Of a DNA stretch of 64,000 nt, positions 6,266-35,378 are shown piece after piece. The DNA lies in NCBI GenBank assembly GCA_964629685.1, contig CAZVTT010000001.1:769319-833318 (forward strand), written 5' to 3'. The translations under genes and the position numbers were made by a program. A model generated the notes under the pieces. It was given only the letters and a program-made list of their open reading frames with translations. It was not told where the DNA came from and searched no databases. Origin of the DNA: an uncultured Gammaproteobacteria bacterium. GTDB lineage: Bacteria > Patescibacteriota > Microgenomatia > UBA10105 > UBA927. Each line of letters begins with the position of its first letter. The first letter of the stretch is position 1.

Positions 6266-6268
6266 ACC

Positions 6269-13575: not shown

Positions 13576-14847
13576 ATGGAGCATCTTTTTGCGCTCAATG
13601 CTATCCTTTTATTTGCTTTGGGATTTCCCCTGGTTATGAAATACAGGATTCTTCCCGTTGAGGGAACTCCATACTGGCTATTTGGTGTTTTGTTTGTACT
13701 GTGGGTGGGTAATTGTGCGTTGGCGTTTTTCCGAAAACAAATTGAAAAAAAATTACCCGTTCAAAGTATCAGGAATGTTATTTTGGTCGTTAGTTTGACT
13801 TTAGTTATCGGTGGAATCACGTGGACATCAATAGCGGATAGGCACAGAGTTGCTCCCGTTTGGGGTGTACACGATATTATTTTGCAGCAGGAAGCTGCCA
13901 TGCGCTATCTGGTTACGGGGAAGAATCCGTATAAAGAAACCTATTTCGGTACGCCGGTCGAAAGTTTTAAATATGACGAGATGGGTGAAGCTGCCGTAAA
14001 TCCTGCACTATATCATTTTGTCATGCCGCCGTGGTATTTACTTTTCCCCTTTAGTGTTTACGTTCCTGCTAACCGGTTATTCGGCTACTTCGACGGAAGA
14101 ATGGTATCTTTGCTGTGTCTCTTGGGTACACTCTATATCTTGTGGCGTTGGTTCCATACCCGTGAATTGGGTGTACTTGCAATTATCTTGACCGCGTTAT
14201 CTCCCGGCATAGTGGAGTATTTTATTGAAGGCCGCAGTGATGCGTTTGCATTGTTCTGGATGCTGTTGGCATTTTTTCTGTTGGATAGCAAACGGTATAT
14301 TTCATCGGCAATCGTGTTCGGACTGGCATTTTTAAGTAAGCAAACCATCTGGTTTGCGACCCCCATTTTTTTTGTTTTACTGTGGTTAAAAAGTAATTCC
14401 CGTAAAACGGTTATTCGCTCCGTTATTGCTACCGGAATAGTTGTGTTAGCATTAGTGACGCCGTTTTTGCTTTGGGATGCGGAGGCTTTTTTCGCGAGTA
14501 CGGTATTTTATTTAAGCGGCAGTGCGAATTTAGCAACCAGTTATCCCGTATCAGGTTACGGGTTCGGAATGCTTTTGCACTCGTTGGGTTTTATCCGTTC
14601 AATACATGATTATTATCCATTTACTATCTGGCAGATACTCTGCGGGCTCCCCGTTCTCGGATTTGGCATATGGCGGCTCAAAAAACAACCCAAAGTATCA
14701 ACCGCGCTATTTGTATACGGATTATTTCTCTGTATCGTTTGGTATTTCAGCCGGTATTTTAACAACAGCCACGTCGGAGTTGTTGCACAACTCTTAGGCT
14801 TGGCACTGCTAAAACAGGCAGATGAGTATCGGGAGAATGCGACATGA
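13576..14847 (+). CDS. Integral membrane protein, possibly DUF2029/GT87-like mannosyltransferase family
   Basis: 423 aa and hydrophobic throughout (about 10 TM). No soluble domain. Lies upstream of the GT39 triplet. The family call is tentative. Confidence 0.4.
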   Translation: MEHLFALNAILLFALGFPLVMKYRILPVEGTPYWLFGVLFVLWVGNCALAFFRKQIEKKLPVQSIRNVILVVSLTLVIGGITWTSIADRHRVAPVWGVHDIILQQEAAMRYLVTGKNPYKETYFGTPVESFKYDEMGEAAVNPALYHFVMPPWYLLFPFSVYVPANRLFGYFDGRMVSLLCLLGTLYILWRWFHTRELGVLAIILTALSPGIVEYFIEGRSDAFALFWMLLAFFLLDSKRYISSAIVFGLAFLSKQTIWFATPIFFVLLWLKSNSRKTVIRSVIATGIVVLALVTPFLLWDAEAFFASTVFYLSGSANLATSYPVSGYGFGMLLHSLGFIRSIHDYYPFTIWQILCGLPVLGFGIWRLKKQPKVSTALFVYGLFLCIVWYFSRYFNNSHVGVVAQLLGLALLKQADEYRENAT

Positions 14848-18102: not shown

Positions 18103-18107
18103 CCCTT

Positions 18108-19766
18108 ATGCAAAAACAGTTTTTCGCAGCGATACGGAAGCACGGTATTTGGATTGTACTTTTCTGTGCATTATTGCTGAGGCTGTATGCTATAGAACAC
18201 GTTCCTCCCAGTCCTTCTTTAGATGAGGTTTCGTTAGGGTATAATGCCTATTCCATTTTAAGGACCGGAATGGATGAGTTTGGTACCCGGTATCCCATCA
18301 TATTGCGGGCATATGACGATTTTCGTCCGGCCCTGTATGTCTACGCAGTAGCGCCGATGGTCGCTGTTTTCGGATTAACACCGTTAGCTGTACGGTTGCC
18401 CTCAGTTCTCTTGTCGTTAGCAAGTATTTGGGGATCATATATGATTGTTAAAACGTGGTTCTTGCTTTACTGGCAGCAGGTAAAGACAAAACGATTTGCA
18501 GAAGAAGCAGCATTGGGAACCGCCTTATTGCTGGCAATATCCCCGTGGCATATATATCTCTCCCGGTTGGGTCATGAAGTAAATTTAGGATTAGCATCCG
18601 TAATTATATCGATTCTGGTATTTTTCCGCGCCCTTAGTACGAAACGTTTTGGGTGGTTAATCCTTTCTGCTTGTACTTTCGGTTTAGCGTTCTATAGCTA
18701 TCAGAGTGAAAAAGTAGTTGTACCGTTGGTTCTTTTAGCATTGGGTATGTTGTTTCTTCGCGAATTGTGGAAGACTAAACGCACCGAATTAATCATTTCA
18801 TTGTTGGTAGGGTTTATTTTAGTAACGCCAATGACCGTACAATCCTTGAGCAAACAGGGAATGCTGCGATATACCGCCACATCCGCATTTACCGAGGGAA
18901 ATCCGATTTATGCACGGGATCGTCAGAATTTCGTGGCAGCAAAAACAAAGGGGAATATAGTGGGACAGTTACTTGCTTACCCGAAATTTTCATCACTAAA
19001 AATATTTTTGGGAAATTATTTTTCACATTTTAATATCGGCTGGTTATTTTTCGGTGGCCAACATGAAAGCCATAAGGTTCCGAACCTCGGATTACTGTAC
19101 GTATGGGAGTTTCCGTTTATCGTAATCGGTATATGGCTGTTCCTAAAATCACCCTTTCCGGGCAAATTAAAGTGGTTTGTAACAGTATGGTTTTTGTCTG
19201 CGGCAGTACCGGCAGCCATTACCACTCAGGCTCCTCACGCAATGCGTTCCTTGACGTTTCTGCCGTTATGGCAATTTTTTTCTGCTTACGCAGCGGCTTA
19301 TCTCATTGCGCGTATTCAATGGCCGGTGATTATCGGTTTAACGGTAGCGGTTATGGCAAGCATAATATCGTTTAATACAAATTATTTTCGCGTATTTCCC
19401 GTGACGCAGTCAGACTCGTTTCAATTCCCCTTGTCGCAAGCCCTGCCCGTTGTATTTGAACTGGAAGACGGGTATAAGCACATAGTGGTATCGAATGAAG
19501 ACGCGCTGTACCAGTCCTATATGTTTTATCTGTTTAACCGAAAGTATGATCCAAAAATGTATCTGAAAATGGGAGGTACCGTCAGTGGCGGATTTGCCGA
19601 AAAACATAGTATCGGAAAATACGAATTTAGGCCGTTACATCCGGGTGAAAAAATGGAGCCGGATGTCCTGTACGTTGGGAATCCGCAGGATTTTAACGGC
19701 GGAACAACCGTAAGGGAATTTACAAACTTAGCAGGACAAACGCGAGTGGTTGTGAAAACATTATGA
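18108..19766 (+). CDS. GT39/PMT_2-like GT-C membrane glycosyltransferase, paralog 5
   Basis: PSLDEVSLGYNAYSILRTGMDEFGTRYP motif. C-terminal YLKMGGTVSGGFAEKHSIGKYEFRPLHP matches paralog 4. Confidence 0.7.
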   Translation: MQKQFFAAIRKHGIWIVLFCALLLRLYAIEHVPPSPSLDEVSLGYNAYSILRTGMDEFGTRYPIILRAYDDFRPALYVYAVAPMVAVFGLTPLAVRLPSVLLSLASIWGSYMIVKTWFLLYWQQVKTKRFAEEAALGTALLLAISPWHIYLSRLGHEVNLGLASVIISILVFFRALSTKRFGWLILSACTFGLAFYSYQSEKVVVPLVLLALGMLFLRELWKTKRTELIISLLVGFILVTPMTVQSLSKQGMLRYTATSAFTEGNPIYARDRQNFVAAKTKGNIVGQLLAYPKFSSLKIFLGNYFSHFNIGWLFFGGQHESHKVPNLGLLYVWEFPFIVIGIWLFLKSPFPGKLKWFVTVWFLSAAVPAAITTQAPHAMRSLTFLPLWQFFSAYAAAYLIARIQWPVIIGLTVAVMASIISFNTNYFRVFPVTQSDSFQFPLSQALPVVFELEDGYKHIVVSNEDALYQSYMFYLFNRKYDPKMYLKMGGTVSGGFAEKHSIGKYEFRPLHPGEKMEPDVLYVGNPQDFNGGTTVREFTNLAGQTRVVVKTL

Positions 19767-21394
19767 ACTCACGAAAAATAGGGTTATTCATACTTTTACT
19801 CCTTTCTTTTTTACCCGTAATTTCACTATTACAGCCGGGCTTACCGGTAACGCACGATGCACAGGATCATGTGGTCAGAATTGCAAATTTTTTCCGGTCT
19901 TTTATGGAGGGAAATCTTATACCGCGTTGGGGAGGAGACTTAAATTGGGGATTTGGTCACCCGGTACTCATGTTTCTTTATCCACTCCCTTCGTATGTGG
20001 CGGTTTTTTTCCGGTTGGTAGGACTCAGTTTTGTTGATAGTACCAAAATGGTATTCGGGCTTGCATACGTTGCGAGTATTCTGACGTTCTATGTATGGGC
20101 GAGGCGACAATGGGGGAATGCAGCAGGATTCGCAGGAGCGATTGCTTACGGATTTGCACCGTACAGATTCGTGGATTTGTATGTCCGTGGAGCAATTGGC
20201 GAACATGTGGCTTTTATTTTCCCGCCCTTAATTTTGTTTGGCTTGTGGCTATCCGCACATAAGAAACAGTCTCAGTTTATTCAACTGTTATGTATCTCAG
20301 GGGGAGTTGCAGGTTTAGTGCTATCACACAATGCAGTAAGTCTGATGGTGCTTCCTGTGGTACTTCTCTATTCGTTATATTTGGCGAAGTATCATTCGGA
20401 CAGACCAAAGAGTTTTCTGTTGTGGATATTTGCCGCGCTGTCTGCGGGTATGGCCCTCTCCGCATTTTTCTGGATTCCTGCTTTGCTCGAAGGAAAGTAT
20501 ACCTTGCGGTATATCGTAACCGCAGGAGAAGTTCTCCAGCGATTCGTTCCGTTATCTCAGTTATTCTATTCTCCGTGGAATTATGGTGGCGGAAATGATT
20601 TTTCGAAACAAGTGGGAGTACTGCAATGGTTAAGTATTGTAGGATTGGTAGGAATCGTATGGCGTAACGGCATACGTCGTGAACAAAGCCGGTTGTCGTT
20701 CGGTATTGTTATCGTGTGCCTTTTTTCTATATGGATGACGACAGGCTGGTCCGGTTTCCTCTGGAAACATGTTCCGTTGTTGCAAACGTTTCAGTTCTCC
20801 TGGCGTTTTCTTACTCTGACCGTGTTTGCTACCGCAGCAGCGGTGGCGCAGTGCATATCATTTTTATCGGCACGCGTTAGACGATGGATTGTCCTTCTCT
20901 TTACGTGCATCACACTTATTCTTACGGTAGGCATGTGGCACCCAAAAACGTACAAGGTATATGATCCGCATTTTTTTACGAATATATATCAGGGGACTAC
21001 GGATACCGGTGAAAGTAGTCCTATCTGGTCCGTTCGTTTTATGGAACGAATACCTCCTGCTCCGCTGGAATTAATAGCCGGTGAAGCATCGTTCGTCGCT
21101 TTAGAAAGGTCTTCCACATTTCATGAATACAGAGTAATTGCACGTACAAAGTCACGTTTGGTAGAAAATACGTTATACTTTCCGGGTTGGGTTTTACTGG
21201 TAGACGGGGTAAAAGTCGAACCACAATTCCAGGACCCTGACTACCGCGGACTTATGACATTTTGGTTAGAGACGGGTGAGCATACCGTCCAATTTATGTT
21301 TACGGATACGAAAGTGCGTAAGATAGCAAACACCATAAGTATGATATCCGCGGTAGCAATTCTGGTTTTGTTCGGAAAGCGGTTAGTTTTATGA
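19763..21394 (+). CDS. YfhO/PTPS-related-type polytopic membrane protein, paralog C
   Basis: VTHDAQDHVVRIANFF...IPRWGGDLNWGFGHPVLMFLYPLPSY and C-terminal LYFPGWVLLVDGVKVEPQFQDPDYRGLMTF...GEHTVQFMFTDT. Overlaps the upstream GT39 by 4 nt. Confidence 0.6.
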   Translation: MNSRKIGLFILLLLSFLPVISLLQPGLPVTHDAQDHVVRIANFFRSFMEGNLIPRWGGDLNWGFGHPVLMFLYPLPSYVAVFFRLVGLSFVDSTKMVFGLAYVASILTFYVWARRQWGNAAGFAGAIAYGFAPYRFVDLYVRGAIGEHVAFIFPPLILFGLWLSAHKKQSQFIQLLCISGGVAGLVLSHNAVSLMVLPVVLLYSLYLAKYHSDRPKSFLLWIFAALSAGMALSAFFWIPALLEGKYTLRYIVTAGEVLQRFVPLSQLFYSPWNYGGGNDFSKQVGVLQWLSIVGLVGIVWRNGIRREQSRLSFGIVIVCLFSIWMTTGWSGFLWKHVPLLQTFQFSWRFLTLTVFATAAAVAQCISFLSARVRRWIVLLFTCITLILTVGMWHPKTYKVYDPHFFTNIYQGTTDTGESSPIWSVRFMERIPPAPLELIAGEASFVALERSSTFHEYRVIARTKSRLVENTLYFPGWVLLVDGVKVEPQFQDPDYRGLMTFWLETGEHTVQFMFTDTKVRKIANTISMISAVAILVLFGKRLVL

Positions 21395-23226: not shown

Positions 23227-23913
23227 ATGAAAACAGTTAGCATTATTGTTCCGGTGTATAACGAAGAAAAGACCATAGACGAGGTTTTATCGGCAGTTAT
23301 ATCCCAGGAGATACCCGGTTGGAAAAAAGAAATAATCGTCGTCGATGACGGGTCGAAAGATGCTACCAGAGAGAAGTTAAAAGCCTGGCAAAAGAAATGT
23401 GCCATTATTCTGAAGCCTAAAAACGAAGGAAAAGGTTCAGCCGTCGTTGAAGGTTTTTCCAAAGCGACAAGTGAAATAGTAATTATTCAGGATGCAGATC
23501 AGGAGTATAGCCCGACGGATTATCCGGTACTATTAAAACCGTTTGAAAATCAGAAAGTAAGTGTTGTATACGGTTCGCGGTTTCTCGGCCCGCATCTTTC
23601 AACTATGTTTGTATACGCGCAGGGAAATAAATTTGTAACATTAATGACGAATATTCTTTTCAATACGAACTTAACAGATATGGAAACAGGATTTAAAGTT
23701 TTCAGAAGAGGTGTACTCGACGGTGTGATTATCAGGGCAAAACGATTTGACTTTGAACCTGAGTTTACGGTTAAGGTATTGAAGCGTGGATATCAGATTT
23801 ATGAAGTTCCGATATCGTATTACGGACGAACTTTTATGGAAGGGAAAAAATTAACATGGAAAGATGGAGTAGCCGCCCTTTGGACATTGGTTAAATACCG
23901 TTTCACTGATTGA
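23227..23913 (+). CDS. GT2 polyprenyl-phosphate sugar synthase (Dpm1/GtrB/ArnC-like)
   Basis: Short (228 aa) soluble GT2: VSIIVPVYNEEKTIDEVL...IIVVDDGSKDAT...IIQDADQEYSP. Confidence 0.7.
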   Translation: MKTVSIIVPVYNEEKTIDEVLSAVISQEIPGWKKEIIVVDDGSKDATREKLKAWQKKCAIILKPKNEGKGSAVVEGFSKATSEIVIIQDADQEYSPTDYPVLLKPFENQKVSVVYGSRFLGPHLSTMFVYAQGNKFVTLMTNILFNTNLTDMETGFKVFRRGVLDGVIIRAKRFDFEPEFTVKVLKRGYQIYEVPISYYGRTFMEGKKLTWKDGVAALWTLVKYRFTD

Positions 23914-25166
23914 TGAAGAAAATTCAATTATTTTTTTTCTCATTGTTCACCAACCCCATTGCCCGTAATAGTTTCATTATGATGGCAGGGAATATGATCG
24001 CAAATATATCTGCGTATTTGTATCATGTTGTGGTGGGACGTATACTTGGTCCCGATAAATACGGCGAATTAAGCGCGTTACTCTCGTTATTTTATATTCT
24101 GAATGTACCTGCGGCCGTACTGCAGACGGTTTTTACGAAATATTTCGCCGTATACAAAGCCCGAAAAGAGTTTGGAAAAGCTAAACATTTACTCTTCACA
24201 TCCATCAGGATTACCGCAGTAATAGGTGCTGTCGGAGTAGGCGTAGCCGTTCTCGTCTCTCCGTCCGTAGCATCCTTCCTGCATATAGAGGAACAATATG
24301 CATTTATTCTGCTTTATATTAATTTAGTCACCTCCATTTTCGGAACACTTATAGGTGGGGCGCTGCAGGGATTGCAGTTATTTACGGGTTCTGTTATCGC
24401 GGTAAACGTAAATATGGCCATGAGGTTAGGATTAGGATATTGGTGGTCCAGCGCAGGTGTTATGTGGGCGCTGGCAGGAAGCGTCGTTGCAACGGTTGCC
24501 GGTTGCCTGATAGCTTTGTACCCGTTACGCTTTTTGTTAAAACAACAGCGTCAGAAGGTTACATTATCCGGGCGGGAAATTGCCGGTTATGCAGTACCGA
24601 CGTTTTTGGCTACATTAGGAATTACGACAATATTCAGTGTCGATGTAGTACTTGTGAAGCATTTCTTTCCGCCTTCAGTTGCCGGAATTTATTCTTCACT
24701 TTCCGTTCTGGGGAAAATAGTTTTTTTTGCTACATCTTCAATTGGCCAGGTACTATTTCCGGTAGTTGCAGAACGGAAGGAATTAAATCAATCCCATGAC
24801 AAGGTTGTATATGTGGCACTGTTATGTATTGCCGGAGTTTCCTTTGCCATTTGTGCTGTTTACGCCCTGTTTCCTTCATTAGTGGTTCATGTACTATTTG
24901 GAAAAGCCTTTGAAGGTGCGACGGAATACCTAGGGTGGTTTGGAGTATTTATATCGTTTTTTACTATCGCAAACACAATTACGACCATTTGTTTGGCGGC
25001 AGGAAAGTTGAAGGTTTGGATTTTCCCTTTAGCGGCATTAAGTCTGGAAGTTTTGGGAATTACCCTATTCCATGACACGATCTTATCCGTAATTTGGGTA
25101 AACACGGGGATTACCCTACTGCTTTGTTGTACTCTTTTGCTATACTACCGCTATGCCAAAGCGTAA
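23910..25166 (+). CDS. Polysaccharide biosynthesis protein / MOP-superfamily (Wzx-like) flippase
   Basis: 418 aa with about 12 TM and no soluble domain. The N-terminal ARNSFIMMAGNMIANISAYLYHVVVGRILGP resembles PF01943/PF13440 proteins. Confidence 0.6.
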   Translation: MMKKIQLFFFSLFTNPIARNSFIMMAGNMIANISAYLYHVVVGRILGPDKYGELSALLSLFYILNVPAAVLQTVFTKYFAVYKARKEFGKAKHLLFTSIRITAVIGAVGVGVAVLVSPSVASFLHIEEQYAFILLYINLVTSIFGTLIGGALQGLQLFTGSVIAVNVNMAMRLGLGYWWSSAGVMWALAGSVVATVAGCLIALYPLRFLLKQQRQKVTLSGREIAGYAVPTFLATLGITTIFSVDVVLVKHFFPPSVAGIYSSLSVLGKIVFFATSSIGQVLFPVVAERKELNQSHDKVVYVALLCIAGVSFAICAVYALFPSLVVHVLFGKAFEGATEYLGWFGVFISFFTIANTITTICLAAGKLKVWIFPLAALSLEVLGITLFHDTILSVIWVNTGITLLLCCTLLLYYRYAKA

Positions 25167-25962
25167 TCCACCGTTACTTTCGCTCATTATTCCTGTATAC
25201 AAACAAGAAAAAACAATAGCAAAAAACCTTCGTTCCATACTGGGAGAGCTAGAGCTACTTTCCGCTGCGTATAAATGCGAAGTGGTCGTTGTGGTCGATG
25301 GTATGTTGGATAAAAGTTATGAAGAAGCCAGAAGGGTTACTTCTCCGCGTCTTCGGGTGTACGGGTATCGTACGAATCGCGGGAAAGGATATGCCGTCAG
25401 GTATGGTATGGCCAAATCCCATGGCACGATTATCGGATTTTTGGATAGCGGAGGAGATATCAGCGAAACGAGTCTCTCCATGATGCTGGAACATTTCCGA
25501 TGGTATAACGCGGATATTATTATTGGAAGCAAACGGCATCCCGTTTCAAAAGTCCGGTATCCGTGGTATCGCACTATTATGTCTTTTTGGTATCAACAGC
25601 TGGTACGGGTATTATTCGGACTTAATATTCGGGATTCTCAGGTTGGTATGAAATTATATCGCCGTACGGTTCTTGAAGACGTATTACCCAGACTAGTCGT
25701 TAAACACTTTGCGTTTGATATAGAAATATTAGCGATTGCAAATTCACTTGGATATACCCGCATATACGAGGCTCCAATTGAACTTGATTTCACCGGAGTA
25801 TCCAGTATTACGTCCATGAATTTTTGGAGAGTGATTTCCCGGACATTAATGGATACATTGGCAGTTTTTTATCGACTACGGATACAACGGTACTACGAAC
25901 CTAAGAATCGAAGTCTATGGCAGTTTGATCCGGAGGTTAATTTTGATGCACCAAATACGTAA
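25153..25962 (+). CDS. Glycosyltransferase family 2 (Dpm1-like)
   Basis: LSLIIPVYKQEKTI...VVVVVDGMLDKSYEEA...GFLDSGGD. Confidence 0.7.
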   Translation: MPKRNPPLLSLIIPVYKQEKTIAKNLRSILGELELLSAAYKCEVVVVVDGMLDKSYEEARRVTSPRLRVYGYRTNRGKGYAVRYGMAKSHGTIIGFLDSGGDISETSLSMMLEHFRWYNADIIIGSKRHPVSKVRYPWYRTIMSFWYQQLVRVLFGLNIRDSQVGMKLYRRTVLEDVLPRLVVKHFAFDIEILAIANSLGYTRIYEAPIELDFTGVSSITSMNFWRVISRTLMDTLAVFYRLRIQRYYEPKNRSLWQFDPEVNFDAPNT

Positions 25963-25967: not shown

Positions 25968-26975
25968 ATGAAACATCCGCACGTCTCAATTATTATTCCT
26001 CTCCGGCGAATCAATTCGTATCTGCATGAAAATATTACTGCCTGTTTAGATAGCTCTTACACTGATTTTGAAATAATAGTATTAATCGATGTAGATACAG
26101 ATCAGACGTTTCCGAAAACCAGAATATACGTGACGGATAAACTGGGGCCTGCCCAAAAAAGAGACTTAGGCGTACAAAAAGCCAAAGGAGAAATCCTGTG
26201 CTTTTTAGATGATGATGCCTATCCAAGCAGGCATTGGCTTAAACATGTAATTACCCATTTTCGGGATACAACGGTGGCAGGTGTGGGCGGTCCGGGTGTA
26301 ACGCCGCCTCAGGTAACCTGGCAGGAAGCTGCATCCGGTTGGGCCTCAGCATCTCCGGCAGGATCGGGTGGGTTTATTTATCGTTTTTTGCCCGTGGGAA
26401 CTGTTAAGAACGTAGACGATTATCCTTCAATGAATTTAGCCGTACGGAAAACGGATTTTACTGCGGTGGGTGGATTCGATAGTTCTTACTGGCCCGGTGA
26501 GGATACTAAGCTCTGTCACGATTTGACGCATAAATTAGGTAAAAGAATAGTCTATGATCCGCAGGCGTTGGTTTACCATCACCGCCGGCCACTTTGGCTT
26601 CCGCATCTTAAGCAACAAGGAAATTTCGGTTTACATCGCGGTTATTTTGCCAGAGTGCTACCTAAAACGTCGGCCAGGATTATCTATTTTATTCCGACAT
26701 TATTAGTCCTTACTACTGTCGGAATGATTTTTCTATGGTCCATATACTGGTTTTCAGGACCGATCTCCTCAGTCTTTGAATCGATTCGGCTTATATGTAC
26801 CGTTGCATTTTTTGGGTATATTGGTATAGTAGGATGTAATGCGCTATGGGTACTGAAACAGTCCCGCGCACCTACCCAGGGTCTAATTTCCATCCCGGCA
26901 ATAATTCTTACTCATTTCTGGTATGGGATACGGTTTATCCAAGGATTTCTTTTTACCAAGCGATTAACAATATGA
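25968..26975 (+). CDS. Glycosyltransferase family 2 with C-terminal TM helices
   Basis: VSIIIPLRRINSYL...FEIIVLIDVDTD...ILCFLDDDAYP, followed by about 4 C-terminal TM segments. Confidence 0.7.
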   Translation: MKHPHVSIIIPLRRINSYLHENITACLDSSYTDFEIIVLIDVDTDQTFPKTRIYVTDKLGPAQKRDLGVQKAKGEILCFLDDDAYPSRHWLKHVITHFRDTTVAGVGGPGVTPPQVTWQEAASGWASASPAGSGGFIYRFLPVGTVKNVDDYPSMNLAVRKTDFTAVGGFDSSYWPGEDTKLCHDLTHKLGKRIVYDPQALVYHHRRPLWLPHLKQQGNFGLHRGYFARVLPKTSARIIYFIPTLLVLTTVGMIFLWSIYWFSGPISSVFESIRLICTVAFFGYIGIVGCNALWVLKQSRAPTQGLISIPAIILTHFWYGIRFIQGFLFTKRLTI

Positions 26976-27241
26976 AGGACGATGTAGTTACGACAGAACA
27001 AAGTTCCAGCGGCAAACGGGCCGACGGAATGACCGTAACTGTAGATTTAAACAAGTGTATCGGTGCAGGACCGTGTGCTATTGAAGCCGGGAATGTATTT
27101 GTAATTCGCGACGAAGACGGTAAGGCAATAATCGGAGATCCTGACGGGGATTCGCCGGCAGCCATTCTGTCCGCTGCAAAAAGTTGTCCGGTAAAGGCTA
27201 TACTTATAAAGGATACAAAAGGGAAACAGCAATTTCCCTGA
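26972..27241 (+). CDS. Ferredoxin, single-cluster [3Fe-4S]-type (CxxAxxC...CP)
   Basis: ATG 26972 overlaps the TGA of the upstream GT2 (ATGA). MKDDVV...VDLNKCIGAGPCAIEAGNVF...SAAKSCPVKAI gives three Cys in the pattern C-x2-A-x2-C...CP. The track ORF 26846-27241 has a spurious 5' extension. Confidence 0.7.
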   Translation: MKDDVVTTEQSSSGKRADGMTVTVDLNKCIGAGPCAIEAGNVFVIRDEDGKAIIGDPDGDSPAAILSAAKSCPVKAILIKDTKGKQQFP

Positions 27242-27249
27242 GGCTAACG

Positions 27250-27278
27250 TTGACAATCATTGTAAGATAATAAACAAT
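27250..27278 (+). promoter_or_regulatory. Putative sigma70-like promoter TTGACA-N17-AACAAT in the 43-nt gap upstream of the radical SAM gene; near-leaderless
   Basis: A perfect TTGACA at 27250-27255 and a weak -10 AACAAT at 27273-27278. The ATG is at 27285. Confidence 0.25.
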
Positions 27279-27284
27279 CTAAAT

Positions 27285-28898
27285 ATGGCAAAGCGAAACG
27301 TAACGGTCAAACATAAAGCAGTAAAACGGGTAAGGGCAGATCGGCCACTTCGATTAGTGGTCGGATATCCTCCTATTCCTTCAGCTAAAGGCGTTGCATT
27401 ACTTTCACAAAATAGACAATTTCAATACTTTAATGCTAAAACCTACATTTATCCCATGGTGCCGGCTTACGCGGCTTCCAACGCGCAGGCACACGGATAT
27501 GAAGTGCGCTGGATGGACGGTATTGCTGCTGAACAAACATATGAGCAATGGTTGGCAGAACTGCGTGAGTTTAACCCGGATGTATTGTTGGTCGAAACAA
27601 AATCTCCCATTATTAAGCGCCATTGGGAGCTTATTAAGAGGTTAAAAAAAGAGATGCCCGAGTTGATTCTGGTTTGGGTCGGTGATCAAATTTCTTTTAT
27701 GCCGGCCGAGACACTAGACCATAGTCCGGTTGATCTACTTATAACCGGCGGCGACTATGATTTCGTAATCGTAAATATTTTGGATCATCTCTCCAAAGGA
27801 ACTCCCTTGGAAGGTGGAGTGTGGTGGAGGGTCGGTGATAAGCGTATCAATCAGAAACCGGCACAAGTAGTAACCGGGGTTAAGAAACAAAAATACGCTA
27901 ACTCCGGGCCGGCCAGTTTAGCTCACGATCTGAATTCTTTACCGTTTGTGGATCGGACCTTAACGCATTGGGAATATTATGCGTATTACAACGGCAACTA
28001 CAAGTATACGCCGGCTACATACATGTATTCTGGCAGGGATTGCTGGTGGAACAGGTGTACGTTTTGCGTCTGGGATCACACGATTAATCCTGTAGGATCA
28101 TACCGTAGGTTTACGCCGCAACGTCTTTTTGAAGAGGTAAAGCATGTTGTAGATACATACGGGGTTCGGGAAATATTTGATGACGCCGGAACCTTTATGA
28201 TCGGTAAGCCGCTTATGGATTTTTGTCAGTTGATGATCGATAGTGGGTACAACAAAAAGGTTGTATACGGATGCAATATGCGCCTGAACGCCCTCAAACA
28301 GGAGCATTACGATAAAATGGGTGAAGCGAATTTCCGGTTCATTCTTTACGGAATGGAGTCGGCAAATCAATATACCCTGGATAAACTCGATAAAGGATTA
28401 AAACCGGAGCAAATTATGGAAGGCGTCCGGATGGCAAAAAAGGCAGGTCTGGATCCTCATTTAACCATTATGATGGGATATCCTTGGGAAACATATGAAG
28501 ATGCCAAAAACACTGTTCAATTAGCCAAAGATTGCTTTACGAAGGGATACGTAGATACTTTGCAGGGAACTGTTGTCATACCATATCCCGGGACACCTTT
28601 GTGGAAAGAATGTAGGGAAAAGGGGTGGTTATTAAGTGAGGATTACGATGACTATGACATGCGCCGACCGGTAATGAAGTCTCCGCTTACGGATCAACAA
28701 ATATTGGAACTTACTCAGGAATTGTATAAAGTGTTTCTTACACCGCAGTATATTACCAGGCGTTTGTTAGAAATCAGGACATTGGATGATATAAAATTTT
28801 TGGCAATGGCTGGATGGCGGTTTTTGGGACATTTAGCGGATTTTTCGCCAAAGCAACTTGCCAAACGATTAGAATCTACTGCTCCGGTAACTACCTGA
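27285..28898 (+). CDS. B12-binding-domain radical SAM enzyme (class B radical SAM)
   Basis: N-terminal Rossmann-like B12-binding domain ...ILVWVGDQISFMPAETLDHSPVDLLITGGDYDFVI. Cluster motif SGRDCWWNRCTFCVWD reads as Cx4Cx2C. Downstream VVIPYPGTPLW is typical of B12-rSAM proteins. Confidence 0.8.
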   Translation: MAKRNVTVKHKAVKRVRADRPLRLVVGYPPIPSAKGVALLSQNRQFQYFNAKTYIYPMVPAYAASNAQAHGYEVRWMDGIAAEQTYEQWLAELREFNPDVLLVETKSPIIKRHWELIKRLKKEMPELILVWVGDQISFMPAETLDHSPVDLLITGGDYDFVIVNILDHLSKGTPLEGGVWWRVGDKRINQKPAQVVTGVKKQKYANSGPASLAHDLNSLPFVDRTLTHWEYYAYYNGNYKYTPATYMYSGRDCWWNRCTFCVWDHTINPVGSYRRFTPQRLFEEVKHVVDTYGVREIFDDAGTFMIGKPLMDFCQLMIDSGYNKKVVYGCNMRLNALKQEHYDKMGEANFRFILYGMESANQYTLDKLDKGLKPEQIMEGVRMAKKAGLDPHLTIMMGYPWETYEDAKNTVQLAKDCFTKGYVDTLQGTVVIPYPGTPLWKECREKGWLLSEDYDDYDMRRPVMKSPLTDQQILELTQELYKVFLTPQYITRRLLEIRTLDDIKFLAMAGWRFLGHLADFSPKQLAKRLESTAPVTT

Positions 28899-28913: not shown

Positions 28914-28941
28914 GTGACACTACCGTTTAATCCTATATAAT
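28914..28941 (+). promoter_or_regulatory. Putative sigma70-like promoter GTGACA-N16-TATAAT; predicted TSS at or next to the A of ATG 28948 (leaderless transcript for the GT2 at 28948)
   Basis: GTGACA at 28914-28919 and TATAAT at 28936-28941, which is 7 nt upstream of the ATG. No Shine-Dalgarno is possible. Confidence 0.35.
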
Positions 28942-28947: not shown

Positions 28948-29970
28948 ATGGAGTTACCACAAATCTCGGTTGTTATTCCGACATTAAACGCAGAGAGCGT
29001 ATTGTTAGGTTGCTTAACTACCGTCAGAGCGCAGGATTATCCACAGAATAGAATTGAAATTATCATTGCCGACGGCGGTTCCCGGGATAATACAGTGTCT
29101 ATTGCTAAAAAATTTAAAGCTACAGTCATTTCAAACCCCCAAAAGACATCTGAATCAGGTAAGGCACGTGGAATTAGAAAAGCGAAAGGCGAATTAGTAT
29201 TGCTTATCGATTCGGATAATTTACTAGAAGGAACGGATTGGCTACGGAAAATGATAGTACCGTTCCGGGACAAAAATATTGCAGGCAGCGAGCCGATTCG
29301 ATTCACGCATAGACCCAGTGATTCCTATATAAACAGATATTGTGCCTTGATTGGTGCGAATGATCCTTTTTGTATGTTTTTAGGAAATTACGATAGATAT
29401 AATTATGCGACGGGAAATTGGACTGAAGTACCACTGCATATTGAACCGCAAAAAGGATATTTAAAGATATCCGCTGCTGCTCACCGTTTTATAACTATGG
29501 GTGCGAATGGTTTTTTGGCTAGACGTAAGGTATTACTGCCTTATGTTACCGGAGACTATTACTTTGATATAGACGTGACAAAAGATCTGGCACTGCACAA
29601 AAAAGCTCATTTTGCTAAGGTGGAAGTGGGAATAATTCACTTGTATGCCTCGTCTTATTCCGTATTTGTTAAGAAGCAGACTCGGCGGGTTAAGGATTTT
29701 CTGTTTTTTCAAAGTCAGCGGAATTATGCTGCGTATATGTTTCAGGAAAAAACGGATATTCCGAAATTCAGCTTTTTCAAATTTATTTTTTCCTGTCTGC
29801 TTTTATTCCCCTTGGTTTGGCAGGCAGTAGTCGGTTATTTTCGTAAGCCGGATGTCGCTTGGCTATTTCATATACCTGCCTGTCTCACTACATTATGCAT
29901 ATATGGCATAAACGTGGGGGCGTATTTATTGTTTTCCAAAAGTACATTTATGGAGCGGCATAATTGGTAA
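28948..29970 (+). CDS. Glycosyltransferase family 2 with C-terminal TM helices
   Basis: ISVVIPTLNAESVL...IEIIIADGGSRDNT...LVLLIDSDNLL; C-terminal hydrophobic segments. Confidence 0.7.
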   Translation: MELPQISVVIPTLNAESVLLGCLTTVRAQDYPQNRIEIIIADGGSRDNTVSIAKKFKATVISNPQKTSESGKARGIRKAKGELVLLIDSDNLLEGTDWLRKMIVPFRDKNIAGSEPIRFTHRPSDSYINRYCALIGANDPFCMFLGNYDRYNYATGNWTEVPLHIEPQKGYLKISAAAHRFITMGANGFLARRKVLLPYVTGDYYFDIDVTKDLALHKKAHFAKVEVGIIHLYASSYSVFVKKQTRRVKDFLFFQSQRNYAAYMFQEKTDIPKFSFFKFIFSCLLLFPLVWQAVVGYFRKPDVAWLFHIPACLTTLCIYGINVGAYLLFSKSTFMERHNW

Positions 29971-30479
29971 ATTATATGTTGAAATTGCTTATTCAGATAT
30001 ACAACTGGTACGCATTTACCTGTGCCAAAATACGGGCATCATTTTGGGAATTGTTTGTACAGAAAATGGGAAAAGACGTCTGGATTATGCCTCACTGCAG
30101 TATTACTTCTCCTAAAGGTATTGAAATAGGCAATAATGTGCTGGTGGGTAATTATGTCAGTCTTTGCGGGCAGGGAGGCATTAGTATCGGAAATAATGTC
30201 ATGATCGGTGCCTTCAGTCAAATAATGTCAGTAACTCATTCATATCAAGGTCGACAACCCATATACTTTCAACCAATCAGGAAAGAAAAAATTCTAATCG
30301 GTAGTGATGTATGGATTGGCACTCATGTGACTATCCTTCCCGGTATAAAAATAGGAGACGGATCAGTCGTCGGCGCCAACTCAGTTGTTACACACAACGT
30401 GCCGCCGTTTACCGTTGTGGGCGGGGTTCCGGCAAGGTATATTAAGAAACGATTTACCATTAAGAAAAAAAATGAATAA
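29964..30479 (+). CDS. Hexapeptide-repeat (left-handed beta-helix) acetyltransferase, WbbJ/LacA/NodL-like
   Basis: Repeats IGNNVLVGNYVSLCGQGGISIGNNVMIGAF...IGSDVWIGTHVTILPGIKIGDGSVVGANSVV with ...PPFTVVGGVPARYIKKR. Confidence 0.75.
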   Translation: MVNYMLKLLIQIYNWYAFTCAKIRASFWELFVQKMGKDVWIMPHCSITSPKGIEIGNNVLVGNYVSLCGQGGISIGNNVMIGAFSQIMSVTHSYQGRQPIYFQPIRKEKILIGSDVWIGTHVTILPGIKIGDGSVVGANSVVTHNVPPFTVVGGVPARYIKKRFTIKKKNE

Positions 30480-31419
30480 GCGATATACGGATAAAAATCA
30501 GATTAATCCTTTTCTTTACATTTGTTGTCCCCTCTGTAAGGGAGATCTTCGTTTACGCGGATCGGTACTAACGTGTTCTCAGTGTGCGAAATCATATAGG
30601 AAAAAAGATGGAATTTATCTATTACTTCCCGATCAATCAGCGGAGCTGGAGCTAACGATAGAAAAATGGGACCGGATCTATCAACTTCAGTTAAAAAATA
30701 AGACGTATCTGCGTGAGCAGCAATCATACCTGAATCTCTATGCGGAAGATACAAAAAGGCAATTATGTGAGGTAAAAACTTTTACCCGTAGCGTCTACTT
30801 GGAAATTGGGTGCGGTCCGTTTTTCTTAGGACAAGAGATTGCAGATCAGACGAAAGTCATAATCGGAATAGATATATGTCCAGGCGCGTTACAGATAGCA
30901 AAAACGATGCTGGAAAAAAGGGGAATCCGGAATGCGATTCTTATACAGGGAGATATTTTGGCATTGCCTTTAAAGCGAGATAGTGTTGATCTCATATATG
31001 GCGGAGGCGTAATAGAACATTTTCCTGATACACAACAATGTGTAAATGAATTACATCGTGTACTGCGTCCCAAAGGTGTAAGTTTTAACACCGTACCTTA
31101 TCTGAATTTGGGATCGTTAACCTATAGACAAGTTTGGGGGAATATCCCGAACTTGCCGGTTCTAAGGCAAATTGCCGAATTCGTGCATATTAATTTGTTG
31201 GGTGCAAAGCATATGATTTTTGGGTTTGAAATGTCGTTTACGAAAGGAATGCTTCGTCGAATTCATGAACGTGCCGGGTTTAAGAAAGTCGCTATTTCCC
31301 GGTTTGATGTGGCATTGGTTTTTGAATTTGTACCGGTGATACTCCGAAGGCCATTGCGGTATTTGGCGAAAAATTCTGCTCTGTTTTGGCCGATGGTAAA
31401 AGTAATTGCTACAAAATAA
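30472..31419 (+). CDS. Class I SAM-dependent methyltransferase with N-terminal Trm112-like zinc ribbon
   Basis: The start MNKRYTDK... overlaps the upstream stop (ATGAATAA). Zinc ribbon CPLC...CSQC. Motif I YLEIGCGPFF and later DLIYGGGVIEHFPD. The track's 5' extension from 30385 overlaps the acetyltransferase and is rejected. Confidence 0.75.
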   Translation: MNKRYTDKNQINPFLYICCPLCKGDLRLRGSVLTCSQCAKSYRKKDGIYLLLPDQSAELELTIEKWDRIYQLQLKNKTYLREQQSYLNLYAEDTKRQLCEVKTFTRSVYLEIGCGPFFLGQEIADQTKVIIGIDICPGALQIAKTMLEKRGIRNAILIQGDILALPLKRDSVDLIYGGGVIEHFPDTQQCVNELHRVLRPKGVSFNTVPYLNLGSLTYRQVWGNIPNLPVLRQIAEFVHINLLGAKHMIFGFEMSFTKGMLRRIHERAGFKKVAISRFDVALVFEFVPVILRRPLRYLAKNSALFWPMVKVIATK

Positions 31420-31473
31420 TAACAGTGTGGATTTCATTTGAATGTATACTTGTCCAAACGTACTGGATCGGTT

Positions 31474-32637
31474 ATGAAAAAACAATTACGCGTATTACAG
31501 ATTGGACATGTAAAAGTTCCGGGGGTAGTTCAGGATTTAAAGCAGTATCTCATACAGTCTTATTCGGATGTTTCTACATTTGAGCATCCGTTTTCAACTA
31601 TTATCGAGCTGAATAAGACTACTGCTTCCTTATATGAGAAATATATTCAAGGGCGACTAGTTGAAAGGAAAAATAGCTTTGCACCTGTGGGAAGTGAATT
31701 GTTCTTCTGGCTAAGAGATGTTCTGTGGACCTGGTGGGAAGTGTGGCGATGTGGGAATTCGTATGATGTGGGAATAGGAATGGATTGCCTGAATGCTTCT
31801 ACCGTACTTGTTTTAAAATTTTTGGGGAAAGTAAACTATGTGGTGTACTATACGGTAGATGTAACTGATAAAAGGTTTTCAAATCCGATACTTAGTTGGT
31901 TATATTTACAAATGGACAAAAGGTGCTGCCAGTTTGCCGATGAAGTATGGGATATCAGTCCGGCGGTGCAGCCGCTTCGAGAAAAGTACGGGTACGGATC
32001 ATTTCCGAAAATTACCCGGATTGTTCCCATCGGTGTATATCCTGAGGAATATAAACGGAATTCCCAGCGCAAATTTCAGGATTCTACCATAGTATATTTA
32101 GGTTCTTTATTCTCGATTATGGGAATTCAGCTTGCGATTCGAGCGATGCCGTTAATCTTGAGGCGTATACCCAAAGCCCGTTTACGAATTATCGGTAAAG
32201 GAAACTATGAACAGTCACTACGGGAATTAGTAGGAGAATTAAATTTACAACAGGTTGTCTCGTTCGAATATTATCCTACGAGGAAAGAAAATATCAGAAA
32301 GTTATTCTCTTCGACTATCGGGATTGCTCCGTATACGTATGACCAGGAGTCATATAAGTTTTATTGTGACCCAACCAAAGTCAAGGAATATTTTGCTGCA
32401 GGATTACCAGTAGTGATTACTGACGTTCCGGATGTTAGTAAGGTTATTGCAACAACACCTATGGGTATTCGTGTGCGGTATGATGAACATGAGTTTGCTG
32501 AAGGAGTTATTGCGTTATTACGTGATAAGGGTTTTTATTCGTTATGTCGTAAAAATATTAAAGTATACATCCGTAATTATTCTTGGACTGAAATTTTTAG
32601 GTCGGCATTTGTAGGAATAGAAAACCGTTTCTTATGA
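31474..32637 (+). CDS. Glycosyltransferase family 4-like (GT-B); paralog of 49963-51192
   Basis: C-terminal KVKEYFAAGLPVVITDVPDV. Middle-region motifs VVYYTVDVTDKRF and CCQFADEVWDISPAV match VVYYVSDYSPKRY and CCYHADFIWDLSPAM in the minus-strand GT4. The track ORF starts at 31438; ATG 31474 (MKKQLRVLQIG) is preferred. Confidence 0.6.
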   Translation: MKKQLRVLQIGHVKVPGVVQDLKQYLIQSYSDVSTFEHPFSTIIELNKTTASLYEKYIQGRLVERKNSFAPVGSELFFWLRDVLWTWWEVWRCGNSYDVGIGMDCLNASTVLVLKFLGKVNYVVYYTVDVTDKRFSNPILSWLYLQMDKRCCQFADEVWDISPAVQPLREKYGYGSFPKITRIVPIGVYPEEYKRNSQRKFQDSTIVYLGSLFSIMGIQLAIRAMPLILRRIPKARLRIIGKGNYEQSLRELVGELNLQQVVSFEYYPTRKENIRKLFSSTIGIAPYTYDQESYKFYCDPTKVKEYFAAGLPVVITDVPDVSKVIATTPMGIRVRYDEHEFAEGVIALLRDKGFYSLCRKNIKVYIRNYSWTEIFRSAFVGIENRFL

Positions 32638-35378
32638 AGCGAAATCGTATCATACTCGCTGTGTTGTTAGTCTTAACACTTCTGTCTCTTCGTGGATTTG
32701 TAACCGGAAACATTATTTTTACCACCTGGGATTTTGCTTTTCCTATGTCTTTACCTCAGGTCCAATCACAGTTGGAACGCAGCATGTCCATTATTACTGC
32801 GCAATATAGTATGGGATACGCGGATAATCAGAATCCGATTTCATTTTATTTTTGGTTATATATTTATCCGTTAATTTTTGTAGCAGCCCAACATACAGCC
32901 AAGATACTCATCGGAATAAGCTTGTTCTTATCTGGTTTATTTATGTACCGGTTATTACGGTATTTGGGAGTTGGGTTGATAATCGCGCTGGTGTTTTCTG
33001 CATACTTCATGTTCAACCCCTTTTTTTACAGCCGCATGATTGCCGGCCATTACGGTGTTATGGCGGGAGTTCCGTTTAGTGTGCTTTATGTGCACGCATT
33101 GATTGAATGGCTTAGTCCGGAAAAAAAATCGAGATATTTATTTGTTGTAATTTGTCTTGCCTTTGTTCTGTCATCATTCCATCCGATGATGATGGGAGTG
33201 ATCGGCGTTTTAACGACAGGCATCATAGCACATGCGGTGTATAACAGCAGGGAAAGACATACTGTAGTCGGTAAATCCGTGCTTTTAGGTTTGTGTGTGA
33301 TACTTATAAACGCCCATTGGTTGGTTCCTATGGGGGCAAATTATTTTCGGGACAAACCTTTTTTTCGGGGAGATTTGACTGTTGCTGAAGAGACGGTAAA
33401 CCGGATCAGTAAGGTGGAAGGTTCCGCAAATCCCATATGGTATCCGTTTTTTTTCTATAACAGAACCGGTTTAGATACGGAGTATGTGTATCCTGTACAT
33501 TCTAAGAAATTATGGTTTGGTGCGCAGATATTGCTGGCGGGAATGGCAGTCTTAGGAATAGTACGGAAGAAAAAAAGAGAATATACGATATTATTTACAG
33601 GTTTGTTCCTGACCGGCATGGCTTTAACCTCCGGAATGGGGAATCCTGTGGGTACGTGGCTGTACACATATATACTTTCAAATCTGGGTCCGGTTTTTTT
33701 CGAATTTTCCAATAGTAACCGATTTTTACTGCTACCTATCATAGGGGGTAGCATATTTATGGCCTTGGGTGTCGATGGTTTATTGCGGAAATATCAGTCA
33801 CGGGCTACGCTGATAGCGATAGTTGCTATTTTATGTGTTGGTATACGGGTATTTAGTTATTTCGATAATAGTCTATTCATAAAGCAAAACGATTTGACAA
33901 CGCCGTACTCATATTTTACCGAACCTTTCGGTGCTGATGAAGAATATATATTGGGTTTATTTAACGAAAAATCTGAGTACCGTAAGGCGCTTGCTCCACC
34001 ATTCCAGATATCGCCCGTAGGTATCGGACAAATAAACTACGGCACAATGTCCGGTGTCTCGTTTATTAACGATTTTTTTAACGGATACGCTTCAGAAAAT
34101 CCTTTTCAGCACTTCGTGATTTCCGCATTTGCTTCTCCGCAAGTACCTTCACAGCGATTGGATTTGGCGCTCAGTTTGGCAAACGTTTCTGAACTCTATT
34201 TCCCGACGTACAATAAATATTATTACTTTTTGGACTTTGGACAATATAAAAATGCGAGTAATAAGGAAACTCTTTATGAAAGTAACTCCTCCTTTGAACG
34301 CACTTTATCGATGCAAACCGTTTTGGCGCCGAATCCGTTAAGAAGTAAGCCAAACGTGATCAACGTTTATCAAAACCCAAAGGTACAACCAAGAATTCAG
34401 GGTATTTCTAGTTCATACCTTCTCGGTGGTTCGTATGATTTGTTGTTCCCCGTCATGCAGGATGAACGGTTTAGCTTAGCCAATTCTACCGTTATGTTTG
34501 CCCGTTTAACAGGCAAGCAGGGCTTACTTTCCAGTACTGATGTAGTCCTTCCGGATTCGAATACTGATGAATTGTTATACGTCTTACTTGACCCGCTGGA
34601 TATTCCTCAAATTATGTTGGAACCGCGCCGACAAATTAAGAATTACTACCGTGGAGAGTATGTATTAGCTGCAATACCGGGCAAGCGAAAGGGCATTGTA
34701 CTGGAGGATGGATCTTACGAGATTCAGCTTTCTCAAAATACTGAAGCTGCTGTGGCATTATTGCATATAGCAACGACATCTGCGGTGGTAAAAATTAACG
34801 GAATTACCGTATGTCAGGGAACAAAAGAGTGTAGCCCGTATCATCAGTTACCGTTGGGCAGTACCTCATCAGCGACGTTAACGGTACATGGAGGAAGACT
34901 CTATTTGTCCGATTTATTTATCACCGGTGCAAACCGGTTAAAGGAGAAGAAAACCGAGCTACAGTCATATTTAAACGGAAAACATATACATATAGTGGAG
35001 ACTAATACCCAGACAGTCCGTTGGGCCACCGAACGGGGTGGTAGTCCCATACTGCAACCTGTTAGGTTTACCAGGTTGACGCCGGATACCTACAGCGCAA
35101 ATATTCCTGCCGGTTTATCTATGCTTTATTTTTCACAGCAATTTGATGAAGATTGGGTTATTGAAGGATATCCCACGGTAATGAAATTACCGGCAGGTGC
35201 GGACGGCATGCTATTTATCCTAAACGGAATTGTAGGACAAATAACAATTAAACATCATGTACAATCATACGTATATCTGGGTTATTGCATAACACTTTCT
35301 ACCTGGTTTATAGTGTGTTGTCTGCAGCTTTTTTGGACAAGGAGTCGGCATGAGAAAAACAAAGAAACGATCAGCTAA
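32634..35378 (+). CDS. Giant (914 aa) polytopic membrane protein, unknown family, paralog 1; GT-C-like architecture
   Basis: N-terminal ~400 aa carries many TM helices with TTWDFAFP...[17 protein letters not shown]. This is followed by a long hydrophilic domain and a C-terminal TM anchor ([23 protein letters not shown]). The N-terminal motif is shared with 41894-45403. Confidence 0.5.

Follow-up and report, generated by a model that had tools for sequence, protein, structure and literature searches.

Side by side in a 64,000-nucleotide stretch of contig CAZVTT010000001.1 (assembly GCA_964629685.1; the whole stretch is hereafter the window) lie the genes of a small ferredoxin and a radical S-adenosylmethionine (SAM) protein, which probably form the redox core of a self-contained glycan-tailoring cassette widespread in Patescibacteria, the candidate phyla radiation (CPR). 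We put the probability of this reading at about 0.55. It is built on the observed gene content, motifs, fold and conserved synteny of the pair and its partners, which comprise a MOP/Wzx-type flippase and two family 2 glycosyltransferases upstream (GT2a and GT2b) and, frequently, a third downstream (GT2c). The coordinates of these features are collected in Table 1.

Table 1. Features of the cassette and of the genes that follow it in the window.
Feature	Position	Strand	Description and basis
MOP/Wzx-type flippase	23910-25166	+	First cassette gene; 418 residues, ~10 hydrophobic segments; Pfam Polysacc_synt 53.9 bits, hydropathy
GT2a	25153-25962	+	269 residues, no transmembrane segment; Pfam Glycos_transf_2 76 bits
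GT2b	25968-26975	+	335-residue membrane GT2, tightest partner of the radical SAM gene; Pfam GT2 families
Ferredoxin	26972-27241	+	89 residues; three cysteines, single-cluster [3Fe-4S]-type motif; ATGA overlap with GT2b; open reading frame (ORF) map
Sigma-70-like promoter consensus	27250-27278	+	TTGACA-17-AACAAT in the ferredoxin-radical SAM gap; -10 element ends 6 nt before the radical SAM ATG (27285)
Radical SAM enzyme	27285-28898	+	537 residues, Rossmann-like N-terminal domain; Patescibacteria-wide uncharacterised family; ORF map, Pfam, NCBIfam, homologue alignments, AlphaFold2 (AF2) model
N-terminal Rossmann (B12-binding-like) domain	27351-27902	+	Residues ~23-206, including an invariant 30-residue β1-α1 loop (LSQNRQFQ...)
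Cluster-binding motif	28041-28067	+	C253-W-W-N-R-C258-T-F-C261 (Cx4Cx2C); codons, alignments
GT2c	28948-29970	+	340-residue membrane GT2, frequent downstream cassette member; Pfam Glycos_transf_2 82.7 bits, C-terminal hydrophobic segments
Hexapeptide acetyltransferase	29964-30479	+	Accessory tailoring gene; profile match
Class I SAM methyltransferase	30385-31419	+	Accessory tailoring gene; profile match
GT4	31438-32637	+	Accessory tailoring gene; profile match

The ferredoxin and the radical SAM protein

The ferredoxin gene is coupled to the glycosyltransferase gene upstream, as a first, sequence-only reading of the window had described: its ATG (26972-26974) overlaps the TGA (26973-26975) of GT2b, and the sequence reads acaatATGAagg. 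An independent public gene call, made on a contig with an identical GT2b, gives the same 89-residue product and a 4-nt overlap. Close orthologues keep the residues upstream of an internal methionine ('DG[YH]x[IV]TVDL'), which favours the longer start. The protein contains exactly three cysteines, arranged as C29-I-G-A32-G-P-C35 ... C72-P, and scores above cutoff against both Fer4_13 (40 bits, cutoff 24.5) and Fer4_15 (38 bits, cutoff 22.4) in Pfam. Aligned to Thermotoga ferredoxin (1rof; CIGCGVC), Ala32 lies opposite the second cluster cysteine, and alanine is kept at this position of the CxxAxxC...CP motif in 50 of 51 ferredoxin orthologues. The profile matches and the non-cysteine second position are together those of a single-cluster ferredoxin, putatively of the [3Fe-4S] type. 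Three-cysteine single-cluster ferredoxins, such as 1rof and the CYP51-fused ferredoxin 6mcw, have a core of ~60 residues and the CxxXxxC...CP motif in common with the window protein, which differs in carrying alanine for the second cysteine (as in [3Fe-4S] forms), in an extra N-terminal extension of ~20 residues, and in its partner, a radical SAM enzyme and not a P450 as for 6mcw. Hydropathy analysis revealed no hydrophobic segments in either the ferredoxin or the radical SAM protein.

Directly after the ferredoxin, as the earlier reading also had it, the 537-residue protein matches Pfam Radical_SAM (PF04055) with 66.6 bits (cutoff 29.5) over residues 251-413, and it has a partial TIM-barrel fold with SAM-binding elements. 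Its cluster-binding segment had been read from the translation as DCWWNRCTFC, with Cx4Cx2C spacing in place of the canonical Cx3Cx2C, and a sequencing error had been named as a possible cause. The codons at 28038-28067 (gat tgc tgg tgg aac agg tgt acg ttt tgc) give exactly these residues and contain no homopolymer run, and C253, W254, W255, R257, C258, T259, F260 and C261, together with the spacing, show no variation either in an alignment of 62 homologues (61-88% identity) or in a smaller one (n = 13); in the larger alignment N256 alone varies within the motif. A sequencing error is thereby ruled out, and since the cysteines and their spacing are invariant across the 62 homologues, Cx4Cx2C is a trait of the family. 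Invariant among the aligned homologues are, besides the three motif cysteines, a GGE-like FDDAGT element and the GMES and GYPWET elements.

The family is large, with more than 4,300 relatives found in a search of 5.8 billion proteins. The best 120 of these are 63-88% identical to the window protein, and those among them with names belong to WWE3, Roizmanbacteria, Parcubacteria and 'Patescibacteria group' bacteria. In a search of 1.84 billion cluster representatives, the outgroups nearest to the family (33-58% identity) carry either RDCW[WY]G[KR]CTFC or longer loops between the first two cysteines, namely Cx7 ('CWWRKDGGC'), Cx10 and Cx16, and relatives at ~28-30% identity have the canonical RGCPxxCxFC, to which, as to the motif of HpnJ, Cx4Cx2C aligns with a one-residue insertion. 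Because the loop varies from Cx4 to Cx16 in the outgroups and is canonical in distant relatives and HpnJ, the first-to-second cysteine loop is, on these alignments, a plastic element of the clade. The spacing is rare, and to that extent was rightly called unusual, yet it has precedents in the literature in OxsB (crystal structure), GenD1 and Megacluster-4-11 of RadicalSAM.org.

Some full-length relatives at 29-38% identity are without any of the three motif cysteines (P0138, P0143, P0147, P0150 and P0156) and may be pseudo-enzymes, while others carry Cx7, Cx10 or Cx16 (P0129, P0137, P0152 and P0155). Five further relatives of 665-972 residues (P0122-P0126) contain inteins of ~170-450 residues at a cluster-motif cysteine, placed before the third cysteine in P0122, P0124, P0125 and P0126 (CTF|C...N|C) and at the first in P0123 (RD|C...HN|CWW); their splicing would restore the normal motif.

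Conservation of the cassette across Patescibacteria

A species-level scan with one genome per species returned at least 507 confirmed relatives of the radical SAM protein, of which the best 80 loci were kept, the closest being from Collierbacteria. Cassette membership was counted by tblastn of the window proteins against the related loci (83 non-duplicate), with 65 loci evaluable on the basis of at least 4.5 kb of upstream sequence. Upstream of the radical SAM gene, GT2b was found in 62 of these 65 loci, GT2a and the MOP flippase in 50 each, and the ferredoxin in 44, with the full order of flippase, GT2a, GT2b, ferredoxin and radical SAM gene in 35. Downstream, 20 of 54 loci have a GT2c homologue scoring 150 bits or more at a distance of no more than 5 kb, and GT2c, GT4 and the methyltransferase all recur in the closest relatives (L009 and L012). 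Gene order and strand are kept in Collier-, Roizman- and Gottesmanbacteria, in WWE3 and in other Patescibacteria, as seen over the 83 loci and in three distant orthologues looked up one by one. The flanks in Roizmanbacteria and Parcubacteria are pyruvate kinase, amino-acid or nucleoside genes; as these are unrelated to glycans, the cassette is self-contained. The radical SAM protein is its most conserved member, with a median identity to the window protein of 64% against 25-47% for the partners, and it is 56-79% identical across classes of the CPR radiation.

The association with glycan genes is also found among distant relatives of the enzyme. P0132, which has the canonical motif, lies beside three more B12-radical SAM paralogues, GT2, PMT, YfhO and nucleoside diphosphate (NDP)-sugar enzymes; P0131 is found among GT2s, methyltransferases and further radical SAM genes; and P0144 precedes a Bac_transf initiating transferase. 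P0142, a Cx4 protein, is translationally coupled to an FAD/NAD reductase-like gene and stands near SIS, nucleotidyltransferase-phosphatase, epimerase, Wzy and WecA-type transferase genes. From these loci it follows that both the glycan association and a private redox partner extend well beyond the CPR family. The reductase-like gene coupled to P0142 (L090, 6351-8515, and L091) encodes 216 residues with FAD_binding_6/NAD_binding_1 domains and ends exactly at the radical SAM start, as if an electron donor of its own had been recruited independently for this relative. In L087 (1252-11556), four paralogous B12-like radical SAM genes occupy a single glycan locus with GT2, PMT, YfhO and NDP-sugar genes.

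The proposal of the sequence-only reading that the pair tailors a glycan is therefore supported, both by a cassette conserved in order and strand and by the polysaccharide loci of distant relatives. Its second proposal, a dedicated electron donor, gains support from the ferredoxin motif kept in nearly all copies, from the position of the ferredoxin before the radical SAM gene in most evaluable loci, and from the coupled reductase-like gene of P0142. We infer that the ferredoxin is the dedicated electron donor of the radical SAM enzyme, and regard this as well supported.

The glycosyltransferases of the cassette point to a membrane-bound acceptor. The AF2 model of GT2b (pLDDT 95) combines a GT-A domain with an amphipathic helix and, at the C-terminal end, three long helices. 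Its top Foldseek matches are PcManGT (6yv7), BcsA and hyaluronan synthase, and the motifs DDD81-83, GEDT177-180 and HHRR204-207 of the protein are invariant. By this model, GT2b is a membrane-embedded enzyme of a minimal cellulose-synthase-like type that would act on membrane-bound acceptors. GT2a weakly resembles polyprenyl-phosphate sugar synthases of the dolichol-phosphate-mannose synthase/PpgS type: its best Protein Data Bank (PDB) sequence match is the Pyrococcus furiosus dolichol-phosphate-mannose synthase (5mlz, E 3.6e-6), and its best NCBIfam match is PpgS, at 35.5 bits far under the cutoff. The acceptor is taken to be membrane-bound because of this GT2a resemblance and because GT2b, with its three C-terminal transmembrane helices, is like PcManGT, BcsA and hyaluronan synthase.

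In the mechanism that we propose, the GT2 enzymes would work at the cytoplasmic face of the membrane and assemble a sugar or a short glycan on an acceptor that is membrane-anchored and probably polyprenyl-linked. The ferredoxin would pass an electron to the putative [4Fe-4S] cluster held by C253, C258 and C261, upon which SAM would be cleaved to a 5'-deoxyadenosyl radical that abstracts hydrogen from an unactivated carbon of the sugar. The MOP protein would then flip the modified lipid-linked sugar, and enzymes on the outer side of the membrane, such as the window's numerous GT-C proteins, would use it.

The promoter-like element in the ferredoxin-radical SAM gap is found beyond the window. 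Of the 83 related loci, 25 carry a TTGAC-N17-19-xAxWxT element just upstream of the radical SAM gene, where random windows would give ~1.6. The total of sigma-70-like sites in the region is not above that of shuffled sequences. A second sigma-70-like match at 28914-28941 (+) has its -10 element ending 6 nt before the GT2c ATG (28948), so that the two best matches on the + strand occupy the two intergenic gaps flanking the radical SAM gene; both would suit leaderless transcripts.

Many public cassette-bearing contigs, including L006, L007, L009, L010, L012, L013 and L020, are titled 'uncultured Pseudomonadales' or 'uncultured Gammaproteobacteria' bacterium. These titles look wrong in view of the gene content and of the likeness of the cassette to that of named Patescibacteria records.

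Family placement, cofactor and reaction

The reaction at the sugar carbon is a separate matter, and here cobalamin-mediated C-methylation, which the sequence-only reading had put forward, is our tentative first choice. According to reviews, methylases make up the majority of the characterised enzymes with this architecture, among them the sugar C-methylases GenK, GenD1 and MoeK5, for which lipid-linked or aminoglycoside sugars are the known substrates. We rank C-methylation first because it is the commonest outcome for the architecture, because GenD1 has the Cx4Cx2C spacing, and because the best PDB sequence match of the radical SAM protein is the cobalamin methylase MgmA (E 5.8e-10). It is not established, as the nearest curated families, the putative ring-contractase HpnJ and the cyclase BchE, are not methylases.

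Several points weigh against our preferred reading, whether in its assignment of a glycan substrate and a ferredoxin partner or in the cobalamin chemistry placed first within it. The substrate is assigned from the gene neighbourhood only, and about one third of the evaluable loci have no ferredoxin adjacent to the radical SAM gene. [3Fe-4S] ferredoxins usually have higher potentials than would be best for the reduction of a radical SAM cluster or of cob(II)alamin. The protein reaches the cutoff of no NCBIfam family, the scores (with cutoffs) being 152.4 (577.6) for HpnJ (TIGR03471), 105.1 (481) for BchE (TIGR02026), 71 (650) for HpnR and 32.9 (500) for AprD4 (NF033070). The Pfam B12-binding profile (PF02310) scores 29.5 bits (E 7e-7), just under its cutoff of 32.1, and in the alignment to MgmA the cobalamin motifs are partly kept, with VGGP replaced by VGDH (the GG being G133-D134) and GEGE by G155-G-D-Y158. 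Neither a cobalamin riboswitch, nor any other Rfam family, nor a cobalamin-related gene was found in the 64-kb window, and the closest solved structure, AprD4, binds no cobalamin.

The sequence-only reading had called the protein a class B, cobalamin-dependent enzyme with an N-terminal B12-binding Rossmann domain. The Rossmann fold stands, being present in the AF2 model and in the structure comparison. The cofactor assignment is weakened by the sub-threshold profile, the GD and GGDY found for GG and GE, and the non-cobalamin nature of AprD4. Measured against the base-off cobalamin motifs of structurally defined enzymes (GxS/TxX after β3, GG on β4, GE at the start of α5), the protein agrees in part: it has V103-E-T105-K-S107, with T105 at the S/T position, followed by G133-D134 and G155-G156-D157-Y158. 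A precomputed PF02310 match exists for about half of the listed homologues. A comparison of the N-terminal domain alone with PDB sequences gave chance-level matches only and is uninformative on cobalamin binding. Few parts of the protein are as conserved as the cofactor-edge loops of the Rossmann sheet, including the 30-residue β1-α1 loop, and this conservation shows that the domain binds something important. Cobalamin binding by the enzyme is thus putative and unproven.

The AF2 model of the radical SAM protein (pLDDT 83, pTM 0.86) is of low confidence in the cysteine loop. Compared with solved structures, it matches AprD4 (6fd2) best, followed by TsrM (24.3), MgmA (23.6), CysS (21.9), TokK (18.2) and OxsB (17.5). 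AprD4, the apramycin 1,2-diol dehydratase, is 15% identical to the window protein and works without cobalamin but with a partner reductase, whose counterpart is absent from the cassette. The methylases MgmA (9ccb), TsrM (6wte), CysS (9n1b) and TokK (7kdx) are 14-20% identical; the window protein has GD and GGDY instead of their GG and GEGE and is without their extra C-terminal domain, and their substrates are peptides, proteins or small molecules and not glycans. Two cobalamin radical SAM enzymes, OxsB, which contracts a sugar ring, and GenD1, which C-methylates an aminoglycoside sugar, have the non-canonical Cx4Cx2C in common with the window protein.

Sugar radical chemistry independent of cobalamin, such as AprD4-like 1,2-diol dehydration (deoxygenation), oxidation or epimerisation with the Rossmann domain binding the substrate, would account for the degenerate cobalamin motifs, the B12-binding score under cutoff and the rank of AprD4 as closest structure. 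CPR bacteria, moreover, are not known to synthesise cobalamin. Within the same sequence network and architecture, it is documented that AprD4 and ArsL do not bind cobalamin. We nonetheless judge this chemistry improbable: the AprD4 profile scores far below both its own cutoff and the HpnJ and BchE scores, no AprD3-like reductase is conserved in the cassette, and the invariant N-terminal loops at the Rossmann cofactor edge also fit a bound cofactor.

Among curated families, HpnJ ranks first and BchE second, both for the window protein and for ten increasingly distant relatives, all below cutoff; for the window protein HpnR comes third, ahead of a tail of B12-radical SAM families. On these scores HpnJ, BchE, HpnR, PhpK, AprD4 and the other 18 matched NCBIfam families are excluded as assignments, and neither a hidden Markov model assignment to a non-glycan family of the BchE or HpnP type nor a non-glycan context common to the relatives, which the sequence-only reading had taken as the signs of a different role, was found. 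HpnJ has the same two-domain architecture, and a bona fide hpnJ, beside hpnI on a Paraburkholderia plasmid, encodes a protein 26% identical to the window protein over 355 residues (E 3e-31), in an alignment that covers the ...CTFC(L/V)W... and CN motifs common to both. The two differ in their cluster motifs, that of HpnJ being canonical Cx3Cx2C (CRSKCTFC), and in the long invariant β1-α1 loop (residues 27-57), which BLASTP does not align to HpnJ, the main alignment beginning at residue 99. The hpnJ gene adjoins that of a membrane GT2, and the substrate of HpnJ is a sugar anchored to a lipid; the window enzyme likewise lies beside a membrane GT2. The HpnJ locus is a hopanoid locus, whereas no hopanoid genes (hpnI, hpnK or shc) were found in the window or the related loci. 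A dedicated ferredoxin and a MOP flippase are further differences of the window locus. Neither GT2b nor GT2c is an HpnI orthologue, as no significant similarity was detected.

These matches bear on a second alternative, an HpnJ/Cds-like ring contraction or other C-C rearrangement, in which hydrogen abstraction at C5 of a hexose, O-linked by GT2b to a membrane lipid, would turn the pyranoside into a five-membered carbasugar, a cyclitol ether head group that resists acid. A contraction of this kind has been proposed for bacteriohopanetetrol cyclitol ether and for archaeal calditol. The rank of HpnJ among curated families and the 355-residue alignment speak for it, the pairing of hpnJ with the membrane GT2 gene hpnI in hopanoid producers parallels the GT2b-radical SAM pair, and the reaction would call for neither an additional reductase nor a second substrate enzyme. 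We hold it to be doubtful, since the score is ~1/4 of the HpnJ cutoff at an identity of only 26%, the HpnJ motif is canonical, the partner GT2b has no specific similarity to HpnI, and no HpnK-like deacetylase is conserved in the cassette. The reaction of HpnJ itself is backed by genetics only, and a sequence network in a review places HpnJ with the methylases Fom3 and MoeK5. A cyclitol ether would, moreover, no longer be a glycosyl donor, which is hard to square with the flippase and the abundance of GT-C genes.

A substrate other than a sugar, either the lipid carrier or another membrane lipid (as for the HpnP/HpnR, ladderane and glycerol dialkyl glycerol tetraether-type radical SAM enzymes), or a housekeeping role for which the glycan context is incidental, is highly improbable in our view. 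It would suit a radical SAM protein that is far more conserved than its neighbours and often has its own promoter-like element, and the weak NCBIfam matches do include the lipid-modifying HpnR and a ladderane-type family (52 bits). Automatic annotations of BchE or YgiQ could be cited for it as well. Database names of family members are either generic ('radical SAM protein') or transferred mislabels ('BchE', 'YgiQ'). The near-universal GT2b linkage with an order kept across classes, and the nucleotide-sugar, Wzy, WecA-type and Bac_transf genes beside distant relatives, argue for a sugar; neither the window nor the fetched loci showed any genes for tetrapyrroles or isoprenoid tailoring.

In our literature search we found no description of the CPR radical SAM family or of the cassette. 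The family is distinct, large and uncharacterised within a known enzyme class, and the conserved cassette around it is previously undescribed.

The surrounding locus and the biology of Patescibacteria

The earlier placement of the pair among GT2, GT4, GT-C, methyltransferase and acetyltransferase genes was confirmed by Pfam analysis of the window, and the neighbours lie on the same strand. The whole window is glycan-related, with several GT2 and GT4 genes, epimerases/dehydratases, an aminotransferase, and acetyl-, methyl- and sulfotransferases, as well as at least eight GT-C-type genes (PMT_2, YfhO, GT87 and PTPS_related) between 2944 and 19766. Eleven large membrane-protein genes (423-789 residues, on both strands) occupy 2944-21394; eight match PMT_2/PMT, YfhO or GT87, one matches PTPS_related, and those at 10303-11961 and 19763-21394 have no Pfam match. 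For a small genome, this is an unusual density of polyprenyl-phosphate-sugar-dependent transferases.

Other features of the window lie further from the cassette. At 58601-60345, a split transketolase pair (the N-terminal thiamine pyrophosphate domain in one gene, the pyrimidine-binding and C-terminal domains in the other) comes right after two NDP-sugar epimerase/dehydratase genes and may serve in two-carbon branching or chain extension of a sugar. A sulfotransferase (Sulfotransfer_3) adjoins an APH/fructosamine-kinase-like phosphotransferase at 54672-56709, a pairing that suggests glycans bearing sulfate or phosphate; in one related locus (L001), too, a sulfotransferase is found near the radical SAM gene. 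The methyltransferase downstream of the cassette has an N-terminal Trm112-like zinc-ribbon segment (NF038101, residues 46-84), and its true start is probably downstream of the listed TTG, because that start overlaps the acetyltransferase ORF by 95 nt. At E <= 0.001, Pfam gave no match for three large ORFs in the same-strand run, of 914 (32634-35378), 1169 (41894-45403) and 696 residues (45692-47782). Of 32 2-kb bins, 31 have a positive GC skew, and the genes are mostly on the + strand, consistent with a single replichore.

The genomes of CPR bacteria are tiny, and a life in attachment to other cells is assumed for them, yet their surface chemistry is almost unexplored. The co-occurrence of a radical SAM enzyme with membrane glycosyltransferases, a flippase and a ferredoxin, in a family found in at least 507 species-level genomes, indicates a conserved and chemically unusual modification of an envelope sugar. 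In its boldest form, which we think unlikely, the cassette would make a lineage-typical CPR envelope glycoconjugate by a new radical SAM reaction, producing a carbocyclic (cyclitol-type) or C-branched sugar on a lipid carrier; the enzymes would form an unrecognised clade with a Cx4-Cx16 loop and would perhaps use cobalamin scavenged from the host. For radical SAM enzymology, the finding adds a large uncharacterised family beside HpnJ, whose own reaction has never been reconstituted, and heterologous reconstitution is practical here because the genes of the reductant and of the enzymes that would form the substrate are neighbours. If cobalamin is required, a vitamin dependency would be added to the relationships between CPR bacteria and their hosts. 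If an envelope sugar is indeed remodelled in this way, an oxygen-sensitive, vitamin-dependent radical enzyme would be among the most conserved accessory functions of minimal, host-dependent cells, and would offer a handle on their surface chemistry.

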